In this document: piece by piece, positions 45,629 through 57,704 of the stretch
Position numbering within the stretch: the first letter of the stretch is position 1
Layout of the letters: every line of letters starts with the position of its first letter
Virus record (IMG/VR): IMGVR_UViG_3300022752_000013
Direction: 5' to 3' (one strand)
From: a virus
Lineage: Duplodnaviria; Caudoviricetes
DNA: 64,000 bases
The notes under the pieces: generated by a model
Seen by the model: only the letters and a program-made list of their open reading frames with translations
Database searches by the model: none
What the model was told of the DNA's origin: nothing
Made by a program: the position numbers and the translations under genes

Positions 45629-47002
45629 ATGAACGAGATCAATTTCTCAAATGAAAGGTTCGATGGCACGATGGCCGCAGGCTGGATCCGCGATCTAGAA
45701 AGTTCAGACAGCCGTATACACAAAGAAAAAACAATTGAAAAAGCATTAATGGCAGCCAAATTGGGCAGTGCCGATGCACAATGTTTTCTCTTTAATTGTT
45801 ACCAGGCCTACAATCCTTTCTACACTTTTAACATCCGTCAGGTGCCAGAGACTGAGGGTCTAACTGGTCGGCCCAACCCTTGGACAAAATTTTGGGGGTT
45901 GTTGGAAGCCCTACGCACAAGATCGAGCACAGGTAATCGTGCTAGAGAAGCCATTGAACAAATGAGTCAACAGTTTGATTCAGACGAGTGGAACAACTTG
46001 GCTCGACGTGTGATGACCAAGGATCTGCGTTGTGGTATCTCAGAAAAAACGCTAAACAAAGTACTGGGCAAAACAGAGTACCGGATTCCTGTGTTTACTT
46101 GTCAACTGGCGCAGGACTCTACAGACCAACCCAAGAAGTTGAAAGGCATCAAACGCCTAGAAGTCAAACTGGATGGTGTGCGAGTACTAGCAGTGGTTGA
46201 CGGCAGTAATGTCTCTCTGTTCAGTCGCAACGGCAAAGAGTTTGCAAACTTTACACAGATTGCAGACGCTATTGAAGATGCCCGTAAGCACTTTCAATGG
46301 GGTCGCGGCACAGGCGGACGTTTTGTATTGGATGGCGAGATTGTGGGCGAGAGTTTCCAGAAACTCATGAAGCAGGCACATCGCAAGAGTGATGCCAAGA
46401 CCGATGGCATGGTGTATCACATTTTTGATATTCTTCCATTGGAGTCATTGCAAGAAGGCCATTGTAACATACAACAGTACAAACGCATTGAGTGGATTGA
46501 GAGTGCCCGAGATCGGCTTTTGGAAACACCTTGCCTGCGTGTTATGAATGGCCTGGAGGTGGATTTGGACACAGCAGAAGGGCATGACATCATGAATCGT
46601 TTTGCCCAAGACGCTGTAGCCGAAGGCTTTGAAGGCATCATGATCAAGAGCCTGGATGCACCTTATGAGTGCAAACGCAGTGACTTTTGGATGAAATGGA
46701 AACCCACAATCTCAGTTGATCTCAATATAGTGGGTTTCGAAGAAGGAACTGGTCGCAATGCAGGCCGGTTAGGTGCTATAATATGTGAAGGAGAAGACAA
46801 TGACCGTAGAATTTGTGTTAATGTTGGTAGTGGGTTTAGTGATACTCTTCGTGATGAGTATTGGACCAGTAGGGATCAGTTACTTGGTCACTTGGTTGAA
46901 GTCCAAGCGGACGCAGTCACCCAAAATCAAGACGGAACATACAGCCTCCGATTCCCAAGGTTCTTGAGATTCCGTGACTTTGACGCTGGAGAAAAAATTT
47001 GA
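45629..47002 (+). CDS. ATP-dependent DNA ligase
   Basis: EVKLDGVR, LDGE, EGIMIK, WMKWK, SLRFPRF. Confidence 0.93.
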   Translation: MNEINFSNERFDGTMAAGWIRDLESSDSRIHKEKTIEKALMAAKLGSADAQCFLFNCYQAYNPFYTFNIRQVPETEGLTGRPNPWTKFWGLLEALRTRSSTGNRAREAIEQMSQQFDSDEWNNLARRVMTKDLRCGISEKTLNKVLGKTEYRIPVFTCQLAQDSTDQPKKLKGIKRLEVKLDGVRVLAVVDGSNVSLFSRNGKEFANFTQIADAIEDARKHFQWGRGTGGRFVLDGEIVGESFQKLMKQAHRKSDAKTDGMVYHIFDILPLESLQEGHCNIQQYKRIEWIESARDRLLETPCLRVMNGLEVDLDTAEGHDIMNRFAQDAVAEGFEGIMIKSLDAPYECKRSDFWMKWKPTISVDLNIVGFEEGTGRNAGRLGAIICEGEDNDRRICVNVGSGFSDTLRDEYWTSRDQLLGHLVEVQADAVTQNQDGTYSLRFPRFLRFRDFDAGEKI

Positions 47003-47193
47003 TGACACCTTTACATGATATTGTATTAGTAGCGGTTATGGTGGCACACAGTGCTTTTGGCCCTGCACAACTGGAGTACCAATCAGTTGATTATTTTAAC
47101 TCTTGGACTCGATGCCGCCAAGAGCAACAGAGATTGAGTCAAAAACAGGATAAAAGAACAGCATACATTTGTCTAAAGGTTGATAGGTCATAA
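47002..47193 (+). CDS. Small hypothetical protein
   Basis: TGATG coupling, N-terminal hydrophobic segment, two Cys. Confidence 0.55.
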   Translation: MTPLHDIVLVAVMVAHSAFGPAQLEYQSVDYFNSWTRCRQEQQRLSQKQDKRTAYICLKVDRS

Positions 47194-47421
47194 ATGACAG
47201 CACGATCAGCCAATGGTGTTTGCGGACATCTATTAAATCTAATTGACGGAACTGTAGTGTTTCGTGTGTATGATGCTGAACACAATTTCGTGGACTACGA
47301 TATACACCATAGTGACTTGTGTGTCACCATTGATGACACAGATGCGTACTTTTATCAACGAGATGGTCAAGACATATTGGATCATGCACCTATGACACTG
47401 GGGATGACAGATGATAGTTGA
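47194..47421 (+). CDS. Small hypothetical protein
   Basis: 75 aa, adjacent to previous stop. Confidence 0.65.
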   Translation: MTARSANGVCGHLLNLIDGTVVFRVYDAEHNFVDYDIHHSDLCVTIDDTDAYFYQRDGQDILDHAPMTLGMTDDS

Positions 47422-47530
47422 AATATTTTTATACGGTTTTATCTCAGCATTCGGTTGGTGGACTGCCACGCACTATGTGATCGAACCACATTTTCCGCCA
47501 TCCATTGAAAAGAAAGCAGAGCAAAAATGA
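47411..47530 (+). CDS. Small membrane protein (39 aa)
   Basis: Read by hand: MIVEIFLYGFISAFGWW...; ATGA-coupled to next gene. Confidence 0.55.
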   Translation: MIVEIFLYGFISAFGWWTATHYVIEPHFPPSIEKKAEQK

Positions 47531-47967
47531 AAATTGGACTCAGTTATAGTCGATGTGTCCGTGATATTGTGGATGGTGTAGTGGACATTGCGGATGTGTT
47601 GGTTCTTATCACTCGTACAGATTTTGATCCGCATGATGACAACCAGTGGCAGGGCATTTGGGAAGGTTACGGCGGCGGCACAGAAAATGCTTACAGTCGT
47701 GGATTCTTTAGCCAAAGCAATCCAGAGTGGGCTGGCTATCACGATGAAGATCGTTTTCGTAGTGTGAGCATTGAACTTTGGGAAACTGGTCGATTACACC
47801 AGCCACGCAAGTTTGGCTTCCATCCTAGTCGTCGTCCTGAAATTTGGCTCGAAGCCGTTCTGCCCAGCAGTGAACTTGATCGTAACCCTGCGGCTAAAAA
47901 TGCTTGGGATCAGTTTCAAACCATTGCAGGCCTAACCAATGTCAAACTAGACAAGGAGTATCGATAA
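47527..47967 (+). CDS. Hypothetical protein
   Basis: MKIGLSYSRCVRDIV..GRLHQPR. Confidence 0.7.
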   Translation: MKIGLSYSRCVRDIVDGVVDIADVLVLITRTDFDPHDDNQWQGIWEGYGGGTENAYSRGFFSQSNPEWAGYHDEDRFRSVSIELWETGRLHQPRKFGFHPSRRPEIWLEAVLPSSELDRNPAAKNAWDQFQTIAGLTNVKLDKEYR

Positions 47968-47968
47968 A

Positions 47969-48199
47969 ATGAGTAAACGTATTGGACCTATCACACTGGA
48001 CAGCGAGGCCGCTGATCGAATTACAGTGCTTACTCTCAAAGAACAACGGGCCCACCTCAAGAAGGAACTGACTGAGTGGAAGAAAGATCCCCGGTCAGAC
48101 TCAAATCCTGGTGGTAAGTGGATGCACCCTGAGGACGTGGCAATCAACACTCGCATGATTGAATCCTTAAACACAGTTATTAAGTACTTTGGCGAATGA
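47969..48199 (+). CDS. Hypothetical protein
   Basis: 76 aa, operonic. Confidence 0.7.
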   Translation: MSKRIGPITLDSEAADRITVLTLKEQRAHLKKELTEWKKDPRSDSNPGGKWMHPEDVAINTRMIESLNTVIKYFGE

Positions 48200-48657
48200 A
48201 AAAAACTTACTACGAAAAACGTGGCCGCAGGTACGTGCCTGTGGCAGAAAACGACTACGACATGTTTGATGCCTTTCCCAAAGGATCACATCTTGTGATG
48301 TGTTACCCAGGCGGGCAAAGCAAACGCTACAATATTAATCCCAACCATGCGGCCTTGCTTGCGGCCAGTCGTGTGGCTGAGTTTGCCATGTGTGATGCTC
48401 TGCGCAAGGCCAGCGAAGTACAACCAAGTCGTACACCTCTCACACCTGAGCAAATGGCAGCCTGGAATCATCTGATTGAAGTGTTCGGTGAAGATGCTAG
48501 ATCTCTATCTCGGGCCAGTGCCCATGACATTGCCGAAGCAGGATTGAAAGCATTGCAATCGGAAGCAGATCGATTAATGAAACACGCAAGTGTAAAAAAT
48601 GCATACGAACAATTCCTGTTGGTATGCGAATTAACCAAGGAGAGCAAGAGTGCCTAA
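48196..48657 (+). CDS. Hypothetical protein
   Basis: 153 aa, ATGA coupling. Confidence 0.7.
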   Translation: MKKTYYEKRGRRYVPVAENDYDMFDAFPKGSHLVMCYPGGQSKRYNINPNHAALLAASRVAEFAMCDALRKASEVQPSRTPLTPEQMAAWNHLIEVFGEDARSLSRASAHDIAEAGLKALQSEADRLMKHASVKNAYEQFLLVCELTKESKSA

Positions 48658-49888
48658 AAAGCCCAAAATAGCAGAAGTAGAAACTGTAAATCCTGAGCAT
48701 GACAAACTCCTAGAGGTACTAAAGTTCACGCCACGCACCTACAAAATCAGCATGTGGGGCTATGGTGGCGAAAAAGTCATGGGCACAGTGGACCGTGCGG
48801 TATGGGACTACTGCATGGAACACCAAGTTGATCTTTCTGAAATTGCCTGGAGCGATGAAGAAACTGTGCAAGATGACATGAACCTTGATGTGGACCGGTT
48901 GCCATTCCCTCCAGGCTCCTGGTATGAATGTGATGACATGGCACATGTCAATGGCGTTAGCCGCAATGCCGGTACACTACAGATTGAAGATGAAACTGGT
49001 GCTGTAGTATTTGAACGGAGATTAGAAGATATGGATGGAGGCAGTGACGATAGCCCCGAATGGTCATGCAATGACGAAGCCTGGGTTGGCAGTAAGCCCG
49101 CTGGCACAGTGGTGTTCATCGGTACCAGCAATGAAAAAGGCACATTCTTTGAAGGCAATATTGAACTTACACAACCATTTGACATTACCAAACTAACTCT
49201 GGGCTACGATGACATTGACGGTGAGGAACTGGTCAACAGCGTGACCTATGATGATGAAGACATTGATAACTTTGGTGGTAGTACAGATGGTAAGAGTTCA
49301 GACTTTGGAATGTATCTTGTGATGGATAACAACACCTGGGAAACTTATGCGCCCGAAGAAAAAGACTGGGGTCATCCTCCGCATGGATCAAGTCCCAGCA
49401 CTTGGGAACGATCTGAGACATTTAAGTTTACAAAAGTCCAACCCACACTGCCTGGCTATTACAGTTGTACATGGAAGCACTTTGGCACAACATATGGCAC
49501 AGCATACTGGGATGGCACACAGTTTGGCGAATGGGAATACGGCAAGTTCAATCCTATTACAGGAGAGATTGTGACTTGGTCAGGATACAACTGGGACACC
49601 GGTTCATGGGTTAACCAACCACCAGAACCTGTAGATATTGCGTGTGACAATAAAAAATGCGGTTGGGTAGGAATGGCATCAGAGCGTCGTGAAGATGCAG
49701 ACTACAACGACCATTGCCCCGAATGCGATGGCACAGAGTTTACTTGGATTGACTATGATCCAGACTCAGCAGTTGGACGCAAGAATCGTGCTAAGTACTG
49801 CGAAGAGTGGGATCCTGCAATTGCAATGGATCGAATTGTAGCATCTGCAGATGAAGAACCGGCCAAGTGGCCAGCAACAAGACCTTAA
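48650..49888 (+). CDS. Acidic multidomain hypothetical protein with C-terminal Zn ribbon
   Basis: CDNKKC...CPEC. Confidence 0.7.
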   Translation: MPKKPKIAEVETVNPEHDKLLEVLKFTPRTYKISMWGYGGEKVMGTVDRAVWDYCMEHQVDLSEIAWSDEETVQDDMNLDVDRLPFPPGSWYECDDMAHVNGVSRNAGTLQIEDETGAVVFERRLEDMDGGSDDSPEWSCNDEAWVGSKPAGTVVFIGTSNEKGTFFEGNIELTQPFDITKLTLGYDDIDGEELVNSVTYDDEDIDNFGGSTDGKSSDFGMYLVMDNNTWETYAPEEKDWGHPPHGSSPSTWERSETFKFTKVQPTLPGYYSCTWKHFGTTYGTAYWDGTQFGEWEYGKFNPITGEIVTWSGYNWDTGSWVNQPPEPVDIACDNKKCGWVGMASERREDADYNDHCPECDGTEFTWIDYDPDSAVGRKNRAKYCEEWDPAIAMDRIVASADEEPAKWPATRP

Positions 49889-49899
49889 AGGAGAAAACT

Positions 49900-50589
49900 A
49901 TGAATGATACACTTGTATTTAATGATGAACAATACCGTTCAGCAGAACAAATCAACTCGGCCATGGGCCGTGTTTACGGACACATGAGTCTGGCAGTGAT
50001 TGTGAGTATGCTGGTCAGTTACTGGGTAGGAACCACACCAGAGTTGCTACAATTATTTTTCACAGGCATAACAAAATGGATTGTGATTTTTGCTCCGCTG
50101 GTGGCAATCTTTGGTGTGAGCATGGTGCTGGGTAATAACCCAAGCAAACCAGTAGCACAGTTATGCCTACATGGCTTTGCCGCTTTAATGGGTCTGAGTT
50201 TTTCAATGATCTTTGCTGTGTTTGCCATGGGGTCAATTGTGAGTGCCTTTATGGGTGCGGCCATCTTGTTTGGTGTAATGAGTGGATATGGCTACTTTAC
50301 CAAACGCAGTCTTGACAGCATGGGCAAGTTTATGATTGTAGGTTTGATCGCCATCTGTATTGCCAGTATTGTGAACATCTTTATTGGCAGCACCGTGATG
50401 CAGATGGTGATCTCCGCACTGGCTATCATTATCTTCTTGGGACTTACTGCCTATGACACACAACAGATCCGTGAAGAACTCAGTGTAGAAACTACTGATG
50501 CCGCAGAAGTGCGTGGTGCGTTGACCTTGTACATGGACTTTATCAACTTGTTCTTGAATTTGTTACAACTGTTTGGCGATAGAAAATAA
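49900..50589 (+). CDS. Bax inhibitor-1/YccA-family membrane protein
   Basis: Seven TM segments, AYDTQ, ALTLYMDFINLF; SD AAGGAG. Confidence 0.9.
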   Translation: MNDTLVFNDEQYRSAEQINSAMGRVYGHMSLAVIVSMLVSYWVGTTPELLQLFFTGITKWIVIFAPLVAIFGVSMVLGNNPSKPVAQLCLHGFAALMGLSFSMIFAVFAMGSIVSAFMGAAILFGVMSGYGYFTKRSLDSMGKFMIVGLIAICIASIVNIFIGSTVMQMVISALAIIIFLGLTAYDTQQIREELSVETTDAAEVRGALTLYMDFINLFLNLLQLFGDRK

Positions 50590-50617
50590 ACATTACTGAT
50601 TTTAGAACAACAATAAG

Positions 50618-50646
50618 TTGACACGCCACCACTTTCTTTGTATAAT
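50618..50646 (+). promoter_or_regulatory. Consensus sigma70 promoter
   Basis: TTGACA-N17-TATAAT. Confidence 0.9.
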
Positions 50647-50654
50647 GTACATGT

Positions 50655-50818
50655 GCATGAGCAAGGAGATTGGTGGCGATCTAATGGTATGAGCGGGGTG
50701 ATCGATTCGCCCGGGCCCGACATAACCGTGGCAGGTAGATATAATGCCCACAAGGTTGAGACACTGTCCAAGACTCAGCAATGAGTCAAAACCGGCTGGT
50801 ACCCGGTGTATGCTCAAG
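50655..50818 (+). ncRNA. Candidate structured non-coding RNA or long structured leader
   Basis: Closing helix TGAGCA/TGCTCA, T-loop-like arm, GNRA hairpin and further stems, directly after a consensus promoter. Confidence 0.5.
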
Positions 50819-50846
50819 TTGGAAATCACAGTGAAAGGAAGTTTAA

Positions 50847-51164
50847 ATGTCTGTTAAAATAGAAGCCTCTGACGCCATGCTTCCGTCCCTTGACTCTCTT
50901 AAAACAACGGCTTTGCCCATGCACAAATTATATTTTGAATTGAGTGATGTTGACACATGGTATACTATCATGCGAGAAGCACGGGCTCAGTTTGGCAAGA
51001 ACTGGCGTAGTCAAGCACATGTCAAACGACGACTAGAACATGCCAATCTCTGGCGTCTAGGAGGCTCCACAGAACGTGTGTGGTTTGAAGTGCCAGATCC
51101 CAAGTTTGGCACCTGGATAGCAATTAAACATGCTGTTAGACAAGTCGAACCCACCGGTAAATAA
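50847..51164 (+). CDS. Hypothetical protein
   Basis: SD GAAAGGA; VWFEVPD..F.TW. Confidence 0.65.
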   Translation: MSVKIEASDAMLPSLDSLKTTALPMHKLYFELSDVDTWYTIMREARAQFGKNWRSQAHVKRRLEHANLWRLGGSTERVWFEVPDPKFGTWIAIKHAVRQVEPTGK

Positions 51165-51170
51165 TACTCT

Positions 51171-52694
51171 ATGATATTTGGTTTCAGCATCCTGTTCACT
51201 GCAATCTTGCTCAGTTGTGTGGCCGCTTACTACTCGGTAGCAGGTCTTACTGCTATATTCTCCGCGGCAACTATTCCTGTGATCATCATGGGCGGTAGTC
51301 TTGAACTTGGCAAGATTGTGGCCACTGTTTGGTTGCATAACAACTGGAAACGGGCTGGGTTCTTGTTCAAGGCATATCTAGTACCTGCGGTCATGTTCTT
51401 GATGCTGTTGACCTCAATGGGCATCTTTGGATACCTTTCCAAAGCACACTCAGATCAAAGTCTAGTATCAGGCGACTCAATTGCAAAGGTGGCAATCTAT
51501 GATGAAAAGATCAAAATATCTCGTGACAATATTGATGCCAACCGCCGAGCACTTAAACAGATGGATGAGGCAGTGGACCAAGTTATGGGCCGAAGCCAAG
51601 ATGAAAAAGGTGCCGACAAAGCAGTTGCAATACGAAGAGGCCAGCAAAAAGAACGGGCTAGGATACTTGTTGACATTGAAGCCGAACAGAAAAAAATTAC
51701 TAGCCTCAATGAAGAGCGGGCACCACTAGCGGCCGAGTTCCGTAAGGTTGAGTCGGAAGTAGGCCCAATCAAATACATTGCGGCCTTGGTGTATGGTGAC
51801 AACCCTGACTCAAATGTACTAGAGCGAGCAGTACGTCTTGTTATTATCATGATTGTGTTGGTGTTTGATCCACTGGCCTTGACCTTAATCTTAGCCGCCA
51901 ACAAACAATTCCAATGGGCTAGAGAAGGCACAGGCGGCTTCGTACATGACGAGCCCCGGTACGAGCCCGACGATGGTCCACTAACTCAAGACCAAATTGA
52001 TCAACTTGATAAATCTGCACAAGCATTTCGAACAGAGCCGCCCGACGATCCTATACCTTGCAACAAGTGCGGCACTAACTTAGTAGATGCGCCGGGTATT
52101 GGCTTGTTTTGCCCTAATAAAGAATGTGATGTTATAGACAATGTCAACGGTGAGCAACCTGTTAAGTTCGCACCAATTGAAATGGAATACAAGTTTATAG
52201 ACGAACACCACGAACCGGACCATGAGCCAGATTTACATGTATACGACGATGAAACTGATGCAGAAAAAGAAGCCAAGAGATTGTGGAAAGCAGTGCATCC
52301 TGACGGAACTATAAAAGAGCAAAGGCGCCTGCACGAAACAGGTGCTATAGACACATTACCCTGGCAAGATTATATCAATCTACGTGCAGACAATGATGGC
52401 AACCTTTTGAGCACTGGTCGATTGTTAGGCTTTGGTATCAAGTTTCCTGAAAATTCTGTCAAAGGTGACTCATTTATTAGAGTGGATCAAATGCCCAGTG
52501 CCTTGTACAAATACAATGGTTCTAAGTGGATCGAGGTTGACAAAGGACTTAGCGACCAGTATGCTTACGACACAGCCTATATTGATCACTTGATCGAGAA
52601 ACTGACCACAGGCGAATACGACCCTGAACTATTAAACGACGCAGAAAGAGAACAAGTGGCACAACGCTTACAAAACAACAACAAAGGTGCATGA
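51171..52694 (+). CDS. Membrane-anchored coiled-coil protein
   Basis: N-terminal TMs, coiled coil, VFDPLA TM, CNKC...C....C. Confidence 0.75.
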
Positions 52695-53902
52695 TGGCAT
52701 CAGATTTACACAACACCTGCAGTTTCTGCGGTAAACATAAAGACTCGGTAAAAAAACTCATAGTAGGCGAAAAAGTAGGCATTTGCAATGAATGTGTTGA
52801 TTTTTGTCAAGGACTATTGGTTGATGAAAAACCACAAACAGTTTCAGATCAAGCAATAGCACCTAAAAAATTAGATCCTGTTGTACTCAAAGAATACCTA
52901 GACCAGTATGTGATTGGTCAAGACTCAGCCAAGATCATGTTGAGTGTGGCCATTGTGAATCACTACAAGCGCATCAACAAAATCACAAACGAACCCGAAC
53001 TAGAAAAAGCCAATGTACTCATGCTTGGCCCTACAGGATCGGGCAAGACCTTGTTGGCCAAGTCGGTGGCCCGTTATCTTGATGTACCATTTGCTATTGC
53101 AGATGCCACCAGTATTACTGAAGCAGGCTATGTGGGTGATGACGTGGAAAGTCTTATCACAAGATTGTATACTGCCGCCGATGGCGATATCAACCGAACA
53201 CAACGTGGTATTATTTTTGTGGATGAGATTGACAAGATTGCTCGCAAAGGTGAGAGTGCCAGTATCACACGAGATGTAAGCGGAGAGGGTGTTCAACAGG
53301 CTCTGCTCAAGATGGTAGAAGGTACTGTGTGCCGTGTACCTGCAGGTGGCGGCCGAAAGCACCCAACTGGTGACATGATTGAAATTGATACCAAGAATAT
53401 TTTGTTTATTGCTGGTGGTGCATTTGTGGGCCTGGACAACATTGTTAAAAATCGTGTGCAAGGCACAAGCATTGGATTTGGTGCCCAGGTAGAAAGCAAT
53501 ACAGATGCCAATCTCTCTCTTACCACACCCGACGACCTGGTCAAGTATGGTATGATTCCTGAGTTTGTGGGTCGATTTCCTAACTGGGTTAGCCTACAAG
53601 AACTGTCCAAAGAAGACTTGGTACATATTCTTACAGGGGTAAAAAACAATTTTGTTGAGCAGTACAAGTGGTTGTTTGCCGAAGATGGTGTAGAGTTACA
53701 GTTTACAGAGTTAGCCTTGGATACTATTGCTGAACGTACTTTGAGCAGTAAAACAGGTGCCCGTGGTCTGCACAGTGAACTAGAACGTGTGCTGATGCCA
53801 CACATGTACAATCTCAAACGTTATCCGGGAATAGGTATTAGGTGCGTAGAAATTGGACCTGCTTTGGTAAATATTCCTATAGCACTAGAAGGCACAAATT
53901 GA
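52691..53902 (+). CDS. clpX: ClpX ATPase/unfoldase
   Basis: CSFCGK Zn-binding domain, [39 protein letters not shown]. Confidence 0.95.
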
Positions 53903-54120
53903 AACTACACGGAAGATCAGTAATAGTAACAGATGGCAATGTTGAACGAGCCTTGCGCAAGTTCAAAAAGAAAATTGCAGAATCTAACTTGATAAATGAT
54001 CTCCGTGACCGTGAGTTTTATGAAAAGCCCACTACCGAGCGCAAACGCAAAAAATCAGCCGCTAAGAATCGCTGGCGCAAAAAATTAGCAGATCAACAAC
54101 TGCCTCGAAAACTCTACTGA
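53899..54120 (+). CDS. rpsU: 30S ribosomal protein bS21
   Basis: TTG start; [26 protein letters not shown]; TAAATA at 53868. Confidence 0.93.
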
Positions 54121-54362
54121 TGTTTATTGAGTTCCAGTTACTGGATCAACCAGGAATGCCATTGCACCTGATAAAAAAAGAACTAGACAAATGGAGTGAA
54201 CGTTACAACATTCCCTACACCAGTAAAACAGTCAAGTACACACATCGAGTGTGTTTCGAACAAGATAATCTATATAATTTCTTTGTAATGAGTTGGAATC
54301 CCAATGGAATTGATTGCTTGAATCAATATGTGGTTGTGTCTGACCGAAACAATAGACAATAA
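54120..54362 (+). CDS. Hypothetical protein
   Basis: TGATG coupling. Confidence 0.65.
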   Translation: MFIEFQLLDQPGMPLHLIKKELDKWSERYNIPYTSKTVKYTHRVCFEQDNLYNFFVMSWNPNGIDCLNQYVVVSDRNNRQ

Positions 54363-54388
54363 ATGAGATTTCGTGTATAAATACACTT

Positions 54389-54445
54389 GTAGATGCCCAT
54401 GGTGGGGTCTACAACAAAGTCATATCTTGCTATAAGGAGAAAAAC
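54389..54445 (+). promoter_or_regulatory. ROSE-like RNA thermometer leader downstream of TATAAATA (54376-54383)
   Basis: 5' hairpin GTAGA..TCTAC; TCTTGCT (54425) able to pair with SD AGGAGA (54435). Confidence 0.6.
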
Positions 54446-54898
54446 ATGACAAATTCTAAAACTCTGACTCTACGTTCTTTTGACGTTCCCCAACTGCACA
54501 AATTTGGTATTGGTTTTGACCACCTGTTCGACGATCTAATGCGTGTGAGCAGTCTGCAAAGCAATTCAAATTATCCCCCACACAATGTGATCAAGACTGG
54601 TGACGACACAGTTACCATCGAAGTCGCTGTGGCCGGTTTTGCAGAAGGTGAAATCGACATTGCGTTGGAAAAACGCATGCTCACTATTACAGGTGCTCGC
54701 AAACTTGCGGAAGATCACACCCACGAGTATCTACACCGTGGCATTTCCAGCCGAGACTTCAAACACACATTTACCCTTGCAGAACATGTGGAAGTCAAAA
54801 GCGCCGCCATTAAGGATGGTATTTTAGCAGTTGCCCTTGAGCGCGAGGTTCCAGAAGAAGCCAAGCCTAAAACTATTGCTATCGCATACAATTCCTAA
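54446..54898 (+). CDS. Small heat-shock protein (IbpA/Hsp20 family)
   Basis: YPPHNV, IEVAVAGF, YLHRGIS.R.F, DGIL. Confidence 0.95.
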   Translation: MTNSKTLTLRSFDVPQLHKFGIGFDHLFDDLMRVSSLQSNSNYPPHNVIKTGDDTVTIEVAVAGFAEGEIDIALEKRMLTITGARKLAEDHTHEYLHRGISSRDFKHTFTLAEHVEVKSAAIKDGILAVALEREVPEEAKPKTIAIAYNS

Positions 54899-54957
54899 TA
54901 TAATAGTGTAAATACAGTAGCGGGACTGTCCCGCTACTGAACAAACAAGGATAAGAA

Positions 54958-55269
54958 ATGTCGCAAGCAGAAACTATTGTAGCAACAAGAACAAAAAACG
55001 CCGTCAAAGAACCAAGTCTGTATCGGGTCATCTACCTCAACGACAACACAACCACAATGGAATTTGTTGTGGAAACCTTGATAGAATTCTTTGGCTATAC
55101 TGAAGAAACAGCCGCACAAATCACTGTGGACATACATGATGCAGGATCGGCCACTGTGGCAGTGTTGCCGTTTGAGATTGCTGAACAAAAGGGCGGAGAA
55201 GTCACCCTGAGTGCTAGATCACAAAACTTCCCTTTACAAGTCAGAATTGAGCCTGACGTTACCAATTAA
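54958..55269 (+). CDS. clpS: ClpS N-degron adaptor
   Basis: YRVIYLNDNTTTMEFVV, IHDAGSA, FEIAEQK, FPL. Confidence 0.93.
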   Translation: MSQAETIVATRTKNAVKEPSLYRVIYLNDNTTTMEFVVETLIEFFGYTEETAAQITVDIHDAGSATVAVLPFEIAEQKGGEVTLSARSQNFPLQVRIEPDVTN

Positions 55270-56062
55270 TTTCAATTCGCTTGGGATAATACACATGATT
55301 GCGATGCGGAGTGTCACCACGTCCGCGGCAATTGTTGACATAACGTATGCCATTTAATGTTCGATCAACTGTGCCGTGATAGTGTCCAAAACACCAGGTG
55401 TGTATTTTGTGTTCAGTATCGTTGGTATGTACCAGGCGCATGAGTCTGTTGCCCATGCAATTAAAATGATAATTGCCCGCTAGATCTATATCGTGTTGAA
55501 TAAGTTCTGCATTGGGCACAGTATGAGTCACAATCACAATCTTCTTTACATCTTGATGAGTTTGCAGTCGTTGTACACTACTCACTAGATAAGCCGCATC
55601 TGTTCTGGCAGCATCTTGTATGCTTTGTGTATCAACCACAACTTCTGGATGTCTTGCTTCGTAGGTATCTTTCATCCATTTTTTGCTACCATCCATGTCT
55701 AGCGTTTCGTCTAGATCAAATCCCCACCACCCATTGGTGCCCAGTATAGCCACACCGTCAATTACCACAACATTGTCCTGCAGATAAGTCAGCCTTGGAA
55801 TTCTACGTATGGCTTGGTTAAGGTCACGATAACTTGAACCTAGATCATTTAATCGATACCGATGTTCGTCATTGCCATCTATATAAAACACTGCGGCATA
55901 GCAGTCAGAAAGATGTTTTAAGAACTTCTTAACAGTGGCATAATCTCTGGAAATATCGCCAGCCACCACGCACACTGGACTTGTGGCTTGTCCAGAAAAG
56001 TTTAGTTCTTCGTTCCATGTTTCCAGATGTAGGTCGGAAATTAAATCAAATGTCATTGTCAT
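55259..56062 (-). CDS. Calcineurin-like metallophosphoesterase
   Basis: SDLH, AGD, DGNDEH, THTVP, FGHYH. Confidence 0.88.
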   Translation of the reverse strand: MTMTFDLISDLHLETWNEELNFSGQATSPVCVVAGDISRDYATVKKFLKHLSDCYAAVFYIDGNDEHRYRLNDLGSSYRDLNQAIRRIPRLTYLQDNVVVIDGVAILGTNGWWGFDLDETLDMDGSKKWMKDTYEARHPEVVVDTQSIQDAARTDAAYLVSSVQRLQTHQDVKKIVIVTHTVPNAELIQHDIDLAGNYHFNCMGNRLMRLVHTNDTEHKIHTWCFGHYHGTVDRTLNGIRYVNNCRGRGDTPHRNHVYYPKRIEINW

Positions 56063-56086
56063 GATACATATTTAAAAGGAATTGCA

Positions 56087-56455
56087 ATGAACATAATATT
56101 TGGAACAGAAATGGCAAACAAGGCGCAAGACCGTTATACAGTGCTTGAGTTGGATACTTTTAACCTAGTGCCAACAGATGAAATCACCACTGCGTATTGT
56201 TTAGTTGAAACCATACCCATACAAGAAATACCTTCCATTGAGAGCCACAAAGATTTACATGCTAATCTGCTTGTAGAATATAGAAAACGCAACTGGAAAT
56301 ATTGTGAAGATGCCATTGAGTATTTGACCGGCAAATGGGGCGGCGAAGCAGATACTTTTTATAGTGAATTACACCAGCGCATACAAAATCTCAAACAAAC
56401 AGATCTTACAGAAGATTGGACGGGCCGATTGGATAAGACCGTCGAAGTTGTCTAA
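56087..56455 (+). CDS. Hypothetical helical protein
   Basis: 122 aa, SD AAGGA. Confidence 0.7.
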   Translation: MNIIFGTEMANKAQDRYTVLELDTFNLVPTDEITTAYCLVETIPIQEIPSIESHKDLHANLLVEYRKRNWKYCEDAIEYLTGKWGGEADTFYSELHQRIQNLKQTDLTEDWTGRLDKTVEVV

Positions 56456-57704
56456 CAAACTGTGTTTTCTCTTTTCGTCCTAAAAAATGCTGAATTCCAT
56501 TATTATTTTTAAGTAATTTTAAAAATTCTAAATAGTATTTGCCTCGAGTTTGCTTGACTTGATCACAAGCCAAATCTAAGTTGTTTTTCAATTCATCTCT
56601 GACTTGATTGAAAAACTCATTGCTGAAAAAATGTTTCTTATTAAAATCTACAATTCTTTTTACTTCTTGGGAAAAATCCTCAAGTTCCTGGCCTTGTAGG
56701 TCTTGTATTTGCTTCATGGATTTTATAATTTTTTCTAGACGCTTTAAACTGTCGGTTTCTTGATCATAGGATTCGTCAATCCAGGGAGCAAATGTTTTGA
56801 ATCCATAACTTCTTATGTATTCTAAGGAACCAGAACCACTGACCAGTATAAAAGGGTGTCCGCAGGCAATAGGCCTGAGAGTTTTTTCTGTTAAATGTAT
56901 TCTATTGTCATCAAACACAGTTTCTAAAACCACACTAATTTCAGTGTTTACAAAATCAACATAGTCATAATCTGCACTAGAGGTGCTGGGAAAATTGTTG
57001 TTTTTGATTTGATTGATTGACTCTGGAGCAGTTAATTCAAAACTGGTGTTTTTAAATTGATGTTGTGAAAAATGTACACCTTCGCTGTTGATATGCATTA
57101 CACTGGTTTGGCTGACCCTGTCAAGATTGTGTTCTACCAGCATTTCTAAAAACTTCAACCGATACTCTCTACGATGGCTCCAATCTCTACAGTAAATTAG
57201 AAATTTATTTTGAGGTCTTGAATTGATTTTTAGCCGTATGTCATACTCGGCAAACCTATACCAATCTCTGGCAATAACAGCATGTGCCCAATAGTGTATG
57301 CATATAAACCCATTCAGGTGATATTGTGCCAAGTCATTGGAATTTTTTTCAGAATGAAGCAAAATCACCTGATCATACATAGTTCCAGATTCTGAATACA
57401 CGTGAGTTTTTAGATTGAATCCAGCAAACAATGATAATTTTAAAGTGTCAATTAACGGATGATTACTGCTTTTGTTCAAAAAATCTTGATATTGTTCTGG
57501 TTGGTTGTAAAAATTCCAATCTAATAATTCTTGATCATTACATATAATCACTGGATATTTGTAAAAAGTTTCTTGATTGTAATTGCGTAACCGATTACAA
57601 TCTGAAATATTTTTACTGCCGTGTGGATGGAATACATATAGAACTACCGGCTGAGGGGATAAACCTTCTACCCAGTTATACAGATTATCTAAAGGAATAC
57701 TCAT
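56406..57704 (-). CDS. Putative GT-B (GT10-like) glycosyltransferase; paralog of 61924-62991
   Basis: ETVF...LTEKTLRPI..GHPF...GFKTF..WIDESYD. Confidence 0.5.
   Translation of the reverse strand: MSIPLDNLYNWVEGLSPQPVVLYVFHPHGSKNISDCNRLRNYNQETFYKYPVIICNDQELLDWNFYNQPEQYQDFLNKSSNHPLIDTLKLSLFAGFNLKTHVYSESGTMYDQVILLHSEKNSNDLAQYHLNGFICIHYWAHAVIARDWYRFAEYDIRLKINSRPQNKFLIYCRDWSHRREYRLKFLEMLVEHNLDRVSQTSVMHINSEGVHFSQHQFKNTSFELTAPESINQIKNNNFPSTSSADYDYVDFVNTEISVVLETVFDDNRIHLTEKTLRPIACGHPFILVSGSGSLEYIRSYGFKTFAPWIDESYDQETDSLKRLEKIIKSMKQIQDLQGQELEDFSQEVKRIVDFNKKHFFSNEFFNQVRDELKNNLDLACDQVKQTRGKYYLEFLKLLKNNNGIQHFLGRKEKTQFVRQLRRSYPIGPSNLL

Follow-up and report, generated by a model that had tools for sequence, protein, structure and literature searches.

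The operators of Escherichia coli ribosomal proteins S4 and S15 act at translation initiation, and the control that they exert is passed on to downstream genes by coupling. In the rpoH mRNA, whose gene belongs to the stress or proteostasis regulon, the initiation region is enclosed by long-range pairing of the 5′ region with sequence inside the gene. Among phages, genes for ClpX-like proteins and for ribosomal protein S21 are thought to allow takeover of host protein turnover and translation initiation. Here we describe a structured leader RNA at the head of an operon that contains both of these genes, in a stretch of 64,000 nucleotides (nt) from an uncultured giant lake phage (viral record IMGVR_UViG_3300022752_000013; Duplodnaviria; Caudoviricetes), referred to below as the window. 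The element is located between a gene for a Bax1-I/YccA-like protein (49867–50589; Pfam PF01027, E 1.4e-53) and a 105-residue open reading frame (ORF; 50847–51164) whose product we call p105, a site at which an earlier interpretation made from the letters of the window (the sequence-only reading) had placed a promoter-driven, multibranched RNA with a tRNA T-loop-like arm. Comparison with relatives indicates that the stretch encodes a real, deeply conserved structured RNA that includes the start of p105; we assign it to a new RNA family of the cis-regulatory, structured-leader kind and reject the interpretation as a tRNA mimic.

A search with the p105 protein recovered 60 loci in IMG/VR viral contigs, some of them up to 343 kb long, at 35–98% protein identity; among cultured phages, neither a DNA match to the stretch nor a p105 homolog was found. 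Upstream of the p105 gene, DNA identity by BLASTN is 67–71% even at loci whose proteins share only about 50% of their residues, and about 60 related phage contigs carry the promoter TTGACA-N17-TATAAT together with a covarying fold. A covariance model (CM; R1) built from 30 sequences matches the window once, at 50655–50849, with a score of 214 bits. Two CM-fitted alignments gave closely similar statistics: 92.8% of cells are paired in the first, compared with 26–41% when the 3′ partners are slid by 1–3 columns, and 90.0% in the second, compared with 29–41%, with both bases changed in 35 and 36 of the 48 pairs, respectively. The covariation score in both alignments is 0.38–0.39 against 0.04–0.07 for the slid versions, and none of 500 shuffles reached the observed value. 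Individual helices show the same pattern. All five pairs of helix Ha are changed on both sides (AUCUA/UAGAU versus GUUCA/UGAAC), P2 occurs as UGGG/CCCG, UGAG/CUUG, UGUG/CACA and GCGG/CCGC in addition to the form found in the window, and Hb, Hc and Hd are 92–94% paired with 8–9 doubly changed pairs. Folded on its own, the window sequence is no more stable than shuffled sequences (z −0.54 for 197 nt and −0.56 for 246 nt), so a fold drawn by eye does not rise above chance and the support for the structure is comparative.

Pairing continues beyond the CM match into the coding sequence (CDS). Evidence for helices K1–K3 comes from a MAFFT alignment (A6), made from sequence alone, of 50752–50908 with 38 relatives, in which K1 is paired in 100%, K2 in 99.5% and K3 in 87%. 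Six Watson-Crick variants of K1 were observed (GAGA/UCUC, GCGA/UCGC, GAGG/CCUC, GCGG/CCGC, GUGG/CCAC and GUGA/UCAC). Base 50897, the synonymous third position of codon 17 (U, G or A), covaries with leader base 50759 (A, C or U), which lies 138 nt upstream, a pattern that only RNA pairing explains; the choice between Ser and Pro at the same codon tracks base 50761. For P0, the outermost helix, 90% of cells are paired in 39 sequences compared with 30–42% when slid, there are many compensatory sets, and none of 500 partner shuffles, which averaged 79% with a maximum of 83%, reached the observed value.

These helices combine into an explicit 14-helix model in window coordinates (Table 1), which extends 76 nt into the p105 ORF. 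Through P0, the 5′-terminal 12 nt of the transcript are paired with codons 22–26 of p105, which closes a three-way junction. One arm of this junction, P2-Ha-Hb-Hc-Hd, forms an irregular rod in which the bulges are invariant. K1 closes the second arm, which branches into the three-way-junction domain He-Hf-HA-HB and the hairpin K2-K3 in the coding region. The strand that bears the Shine-Dalgarno sequence (SD) and the first start codon (ATG1) is the only long single strand of the model and lies inside the junction closed by K1 and P0; a covarying partner for this strand (50834–50852) was looked for and none was found. K2 begins 6 nt after the ATG, at +7. Outside the helices, CCGUGGCA is invariant or nearly so across relatives, AAAACC at 50788–93 is invariant, GUAUGC at 50808–13 is conserved, and the motif GAAAG that follows He is retained also in members in which it does not constitute an SD.

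Other pairings of the same segments were considered and rejected. A pseudoknot proposed by RNAalifold between GCAUG 50655–59 and UAUGC 50809–13 shows uncompensated variation at 50657 and 50811, and its 5′ end is used by P0. A helix between 50660–62 and 50755–57 ('Pa') is only 80–88% paired and has been replaced by P0. Pairing of the purine tract AAGGAGA (50663–69) with UCUCUU (50895–900) appears in the minimum free energy (MFE) structure, but the tract does not covary with the K1 3′ strand. Sequestration of the SD or start codon by AGACA/UGUCU or by the 5′ strand of Hf is weak and shows no sign of co-evolution.

Several elements of the sequence-only reading recur in this model. Its consensus promoter is present at all 12 positions and conserved in relatives; its statement that the region has no credible forward ORF agrees with our finding no conserved ORF on either strand of 50655–50846; and two of its hairpins, GACTCA-GCAA-TGAGTC (50772–87) and ACCGG/CCGGT (50791–807), are real and covary. 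The helix with which it closed the fold (TGAGCA 50658/TGCTCA 50811) shows uncompensated changes, and the 5′ end pairs with 50911–22 instead. A further helix, AACC-GTGG to CCAC-AA-GGTT, dissolves into two others, as CCAC 50748–51 pairs with GTGG 50673–76, not with 50728–31, and ACCGU 50725–29 pairs with AUGGU 50684–88. The T-loop-like arm GGGTG-ATCGATT-CGCCC (50696–50712) proved to be dispensable and the least conserved part of the RNA, only 65–80% paired, with a loop whose sequence is not conserved, and the arm as a whole is absent in several lineages; the D-loop-like TAATGGTA lies within helices Ha and Hb, where UAAUGG 50682–87 is base-paired. The proposed size of about 165 nt is likewise superseded by 268 nt. 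The same reading had suggested looking for covariation in relatives, which is strong here and accompanied by strong conservation, and scanning Rfam with cmscan, which matched no known family: Rfam 15 gave no matches at gathering scores in the 64-kb window and none in 12 related loci that include a distant subfamily, and at E≤10 over 50400–51000 the only match was a chance one to a microRNA (E 0.46). ARAGORN found no tRNA or transfer-messenger RNA. Should any T-loop-like element exist in the RNA, the 7-nt loop of HB (50796–50802), well conserved as YUGRWAS and containing U-G-G-U-A, would be a better candidate than the arm first proposed.

Table 1 Coordinates of the leader RNA, its helices and the associated promoter and genes in the window.
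Feature	Position	Strand	Details
Sigma-70-type promoter	50618–50646	+	−35 TTGACA 50618–23, 17-nt spacer, −10 TATAAT 50641–46; 12/12 consensus
Whole structured leader RNA	50655–50922	+	268 nt; 5′ untranslated region (UTR) plus codons 1–26 of p105; K1–K3 and P0 extend CM match into CDS
P0	50655–50666 (GCAUGAGCAAGG) / 50911–22	+	12 bp, closes whole fold; kept in distant subfamily
P2	GUGG 50673–76 / CCAC 50748–51	+	89–93% paired
Ha	50679–83 / 50736–40	+	96–99.5% paired
Hb	50684–88 / 50725–29	+	
Hc	50689–91 / 50721–23	+	
Hd	50694–97 / 50716–19	+	
Variable apical hairpin plus CCCGGG tract	50698–50715	+	65–80% paired
Rod 3′ side	50716–50751	+	Bulge GGCA 50730–33 invariant, UAA 50742–44 conserved; other parts are 3′ strands of Hd, Hc, Hb, Ha and P2
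K1	GAGA 50758–61 / UCUC 50895–98	+	3′ strand is codon 17 plus first base of codon 18; also in distant subfamily
3′ domain	50762–50833	+	He, Hf, HA, HB; 2–5 doubly changed pairs per helix
He	50762–66 / 50829–33	+	95–96% paired
Hf	50767–71 / 50819–23	+	89–90% paired
Hairpin HA	50772–87	+	94–96% paired; GNRA loop in most members, UUCG in some
Hairpin HB	50791–807	+	88–91% paired; loop CUGGUAC
Single-stranded junction strand	50834–50852	+	19 nt; SD AAGGA 50835–39, ATG1 50847–49; between He 3′ and K2 5′
K2	GUUAA 50853–57 / UUGAC 50890–94	+	Encloses K3; 3 doubly changed pairs
K3	GAAGC 50862–66 / GCUUC 50879–83	+	4 doubly changed pairs; holds second in-frame ATG (ATG2) 50877–79
K1 3′ strand to P0 3′ strand	50895–50922	+	Linker 50899–910 A-rich, conserved; P0 3′ strand 50911–22 holds codon-25 ATG
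p105, first cistron	50847–51164	+	105-aa basic protein
p507	51171–52694	+	
ClpX-like ATPase gene	52691–53902	+	Pfam match
Ribosomal protein S21 homolog	53842–54120	+	PF01165, E 7.9e-18
p80	54120–54362	+	
Hsp20 gene	54446–54898		3′ of operon
ClpS gene	54958–55269		3′ of operon, beyond Hsp20

The RNA is tightly linked to p105. Copies matching the CM were found upstream of p105 in 53 of the 60 p105-anchored loci (numbered with the prefix L); three more (L044, L055 and L056) carry a distant variant recognised by eye, one (L058) has no upstream DNA to examine, and three (L045, L054 and L060) are truly without the RNA. A DNA-pattern scan independent of the protein yielded 34 further CM-confirmed copies, and a p105 homolog lies immediately 3′ in all 16 of these new copies that have downstream DNA. 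Every RNA copy with downstream DNA heads the same operon, composed of p105, p507, the ClpX-like gene, usually S21 and then p80, and the order RNA-p105-p507-ClpX-S21-(p80) holds in nearly all RNA-bearing loci while the upstream genes vary, which suggests that promoter and leader mark a stable module boundary. The genes upstream of the promoter, encoding p153, p412 and the Bax1-I-like protein, are shuffled, inserted or missing in L001, L002, L006, L008–L010, L012 and others, and in L045, where promoter and RNA are both missing, a p153 homolog lies directly against p105. The cistrons of the operon abut or overlap; the longest S21 ORF overlaps the ClpX-like gene by 61 nt, and its real start may be farther downstream.

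RNAs of the distant subfamily start with GCAGUGAAGGGG and retain P0, K1 and K2 with further compensatory changes; GGAGATCTC stands at the SD of this subfamily. A pattern scan of 185,579 species genomes gave eight matches, of which one was real (L259), on a 39-kb contig, NZ_JBBAKG010000057.1, binned as a Haliscomenobacter sp. metagenome-assembled genome (MAG). Its gene order, p153-p412-BI1-RNA-p105-p507-ClpX-S21, is that of the window at 68–98% identity, and in all likelihood this is a contig of phage origin that was placed in a Bacteroidota MAG, hence a weak host lead at best.

Several observations bear on the beginning of the RNA. The promoter is the sole perfect TTGACA-N17-TATAAT match within 47000–56500 and is kept in relatives (MAFFT alignment), in the distant ones as a promoter of their own that comes after a terminator. 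A transcription start is predicted at about 50653–55, sequence conservation among relatives begins at G50655, about +1, and the alignment of a metatranscriptome contig starts at 50654. No terminator-like site was found between 50655 and 50847, and no other 3′ end lies between RNA and CDS. Six RNA libraries contain part of the stretch, and contigs of four of them were aligned to the window; they show presence in RNA libraries and little more, and cannot define the ends or levels of the RNA. The contig just mentioned, of 396 nt, aligns with 50654–51037 and so spans leader and CDS, and two contigs of 132 nt end at 50846. Some metatranscriptome contigs include the promoter, which makes DNA carry-over or read-through possible.

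As a separate observation, the promoter spacer CGCCACC (50626–50632) is complementary to GGUGGCG (50672–50678), which holds the 5′ strand of P2. One compensatory change in this complementarity was seen (AGCCACC/GGTGGCT in L020), within the window's own clade only; the complementarity could be relevant to read-through transcripts from the upstream gene, or could be due to chance.

The overlap of RNA and gene amounts to dual coding, in which RNA pairing dictates the first 25 codons of p105, including the Ser/Pro choice and the wobble base of codon 17. p105 belongs to no Pfam or PHROG family. Its AlphaFold2 model (mean predicted local distance difference test score, pLDDT, 79) has a predicted ferredoxin-like beta-alpha fold, in which the N-terminal 25 residues, encoded within the RNA fold, are disordered; an N-terminus that is conserved in sequence yet predicted to be disordered would be explained by RNA pairing dictating those codons. 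The p105 homologs of L054 and L060, which lack the RNA, also lack the N-terminal 22–25 residues. Foldseek against the PDB gave no match for p105 at E≤0.001, and its neighbours in the ESM Atlas, by fold and by features, are viral hypothetical clusters only. A different arrangement is seen in the subgroup typified by L053, where the SD and ATG1 are destroyed while the nucleotides are kept, and where the protein starts at the equivalent of ATG2; since this start lies inside K3, the initiation region stays enclosed.

We lean towards the interpretation, which we rate as slightly more probable than not, that the leader is a cis-acting translational operator of the p105-p507-ClpX-like-S21-p80 operon. 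Features of an operator are present: the operon, which encodes candidate RNA-binding regulators, is headed by a structured leader, and in the first cistron both the SD and the start codon lie within the fold. A 30S subunit would need roughly positions −18 to +15 of the mRNA unpaired, so that K2, K1 and probably P0 would have to open; because K2, so close to the ATG, is locked by K1 and P0, the subunit could not be expected to seat the mRNA without opening them. The folded state would hold the first cistron off, or would permit a start only after standby binding at the exposed SD, and the downstream genes would follow through translational coupling, as their abutting or overlapping arrangement suggests. 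The level of expression would be set by an effector acting in trans, through stabilising the fold or loosening it. The many invariant unpaired nucleotides (CCGUGGCA, UAA, AAAACC and GUAUGC) point to a specific tertiary fold or a binding pocket rather than to a simple melting hairpin. As effector we would prefer a protein of the operon, acting autogenously, with p105 ahead of S21, since no other gene accompanies the RNA without exception; a small ligand would be nearly as likely, and temperature would come last.

A number of results weigh against the operator interpretation. The comparative structure of the window, at −43.6 kcal/mol, lies far above the predicted MFE of −71.7 kcal/mol. No conserved alternative (ON/OFF) pairing was found to covary, and the He and Hf 5′ strands are only weakly complementary to the initiation region (mean z about −1), cognate combinations being no better than non-cognate ones. 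Concerning the candidate effectors, S21 is missing from the operon in L028–L030, where the RNA is kept; the core of p105 is equally conserved in homologs without the RNA; and a wide structural search with p105 (VIA) returned generic ferredoxin-like matches only, with a best Z of 6.9 and no sign of RNA binding. Lastly, in one metatranscriptome run a lone contig of 182 nt covers only 50662–50840, with 0 mismatches, and could hint at a stable, processed RNA.

The observation of invariant unpaired nucleotides also bears on two other ways in which a leader could act in cis. If the rod and the three-way-junction domain formed an aptamer, a metabolite or ion could stabilise P0, K1 and K2 and thereby hide or free the initiation region, and the large covarying fold with its many invariant junction and bulge nucleotides across divergent members, present in one copy per genome in a 5′ leader and with the initiation region inside it, is what a riboswitch would show; we nevertheless hold a riboswitch to be unlikely, given that the RNA is linked to one gene family only and precedes an operon for a hypothetical protein, a membrane protein, a ClpX-like protein and S21 rather than metabolic-pathway or transporter genes, that no covarying alternative pairing was found as an expression platform and that it is similar to no riboswitch in Rfam. 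An RNA thermometer, in which the extended helices that tie the 5′ end to the initiation region and the early CDS would melt with temperature or stress and switch on a chaperone and protease operon, draws on the ClpX-like unfoldase in the operon, on the Hsp20 and ClpS genes downstream and on the joining of a 5′ UTR to internal coding sequence around a start codon, as in rpoH. In a thermometer the pairing would have to be weak, and neither the dozens of unpaired bases that never vary nor the peripheral helices capped by GNRA loops would be called for; conservation is highest in the rod and the 3′ domain, which make no contact with the initiation region, so that we consider this explanation very improbable. 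A broader proposal, doubtful but worth stating, takes the leader for a large sensor RNA of a new class. It would be a riboswitch responding to the state of the host or else the RNA component of a ribonucleoprotein (RNP) with p105; with it, giant lake phages would time their takeover of host proteostasis and translation by means of the ClpX-like unfoldase and S21, and it would possibly form a homodimer through its apical tracts.

The RNA might also be a stand-alone or processed non-coding RNA acting in trans, as a p105 RNP, a tRNA-elbow mimic or decoy or a self-associating RNA, its link to the mRNA being incidental or serving co-expression. The lone 182-nt contig and the two contigs ending at 50846 would suit such an RNA, as would the recurrent self-complementary apical tracts of 6–8 nt and the conservation of GAAAG where it does not serve as an SD, but these contigs cannot define ends, some contigs carry the promoter, and single palindromes are not significant. 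Moreover, four covarying helices (K1, K2, K3 and P0) require the CDS, there is no terminator, and contigs bridge RNA and CDS, which together leave a trans-acting RNA improbable. Of what the sequence-only reading had inferred, an undescribed promoter-driven structured RNA is borne out, whereas the tRNA-elbow mimic or decoy for anticodon nucleases is not, as the proposed T-arm varies or is missing altogether, the stretch likened to a D-loop takes part in helices, neither ARAGORN nor Rfam detects anything tRNA-like and no 3′ end precedes the CDS. Its last alternative, a riboswitch-like leader of the gene at 50847, came closest, with the ribosome-binding site and the first 25 codons included in the fold and this gene following every copy that has downstream DNA. 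That there is no RNA element at all, and that the conservation reflects a small protein gene on either strand or an operator at the DNA level, is scarcely credible: a 75-codon stop-free frame on the minus strand (50602–50829) runs antisense to the RNA, the plus strand has a 48-codon ORF starting with TTG, and the minus strand is stop-poor in many relatives, but open frames switch strand and phase among relatives, in several members no frame exceeds 45 codons, the lengths of indels do not keep to multiples of three, and the substitutions are those of compensatory base pairing. As its open phase is not conserved and some members are without a long frame, the antisense frame probably reflects base composition.

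The apical part of the rod (50698–50715) deserves separate mention. The apical hairpin is absent in the L033, L034, L042 and L159 types, and elsewhere this part and its counterparts hold two self-complementary tracts, often palindromes of 6–8 nt, whose letters change while the self-complementarity stays. The first tract occurs as ATCGAT, TTCGAA, GTCGAC, AGATCT, GAGATCTC and GTTCGAAC, and the second as CCCGGG, CCTAGG, AACCGGTT, ACCGGT and TCCGGA. A palindrome of at least 6 nt is contained in 17 of the 24 distinct apical sequences; individually, the palindromes are not significant (p about 0.2). They could mediate RNA-RNA kissing, dimerisation or alternative pairing with the Hd strands, the dimer being a speculation.

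Large RNA folds conserved over deep divergence are rare, and new classes have tended to reveal a ligand, a protein partner or a regulatory logic. The leader heads an operon that expresses a ClpX-like unfoldase and a phage S21 in widespread, uncultured giant freshwater phages, and it offers a testable handle on the timing and manner of host takeover. Many candidate phage leaders of this kind are contained in a catalogue of 8,495 candidate RNAs without names, drawn from IMG/VR (Fremin et al. 2023, PMC10690425), and the element may be one of these; a study of phage S21 (Chen et al. 2022, PMC9723584) makes no mention of such a leader.

Among known systems, the bacterial Y RNAs (YrlA) and other elbow mimics are similarly multibranched, measure about 100–200 nt and are found in phages; the present RNA differs from them in its variable or absent T-arm, in its paired D-loop-like stretch and in matching no Rfam family, and a Pfam scan of the flanking genes (45629–55269) gave no Ro/Rsr (TROVE) domain. 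The operators of phage T4 (the gene 32 pseudoknot, gp43 and RegA) are phage leaders that control translation of their own gene, as proposed here, but are short hairpins or pseudoknots beside the SD rather than a 268-nt multi-domain fold, and p105 has no detectable relation to the T4 proteins. Translational riboswitches with the ribosome-binding site in the closing helix (SAM-II/V and preQ1-II) share a covarying, aptamer-like 5′ leader fold that includes the initiation region; the element described here is without a pathway association or an Rfam match and extends well into the ORF. The rpoH thermosensor resembles it in the long-range pairing of 5′ region and internal CDS that encloses the initiation region, and differs in consisting of meltable pairing without a conserved tertiary core, whereas large peripheral domains with invariant unpaired nucleotides are present here. 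The E. coli alpha-operon (rpsM) leader bound by S4 (Alpha_RBS, RF00140) and the rpsO operator of S15 likewise have a compact multi-helix leader fold that embraces the SD and start codon and reaches into the CDS, and here too the operon includes a ribosomal protein gene. No sequence or structure similarity to these operators was detected (cmscan, E≤10), the present element with its 14 helices is two to three times larger, and the ribosomal protein gene, S21, stands fourth in the operon and is missing in some RNA-bearing members; the likeness to the S4 and S15 operators is one of anatomy.

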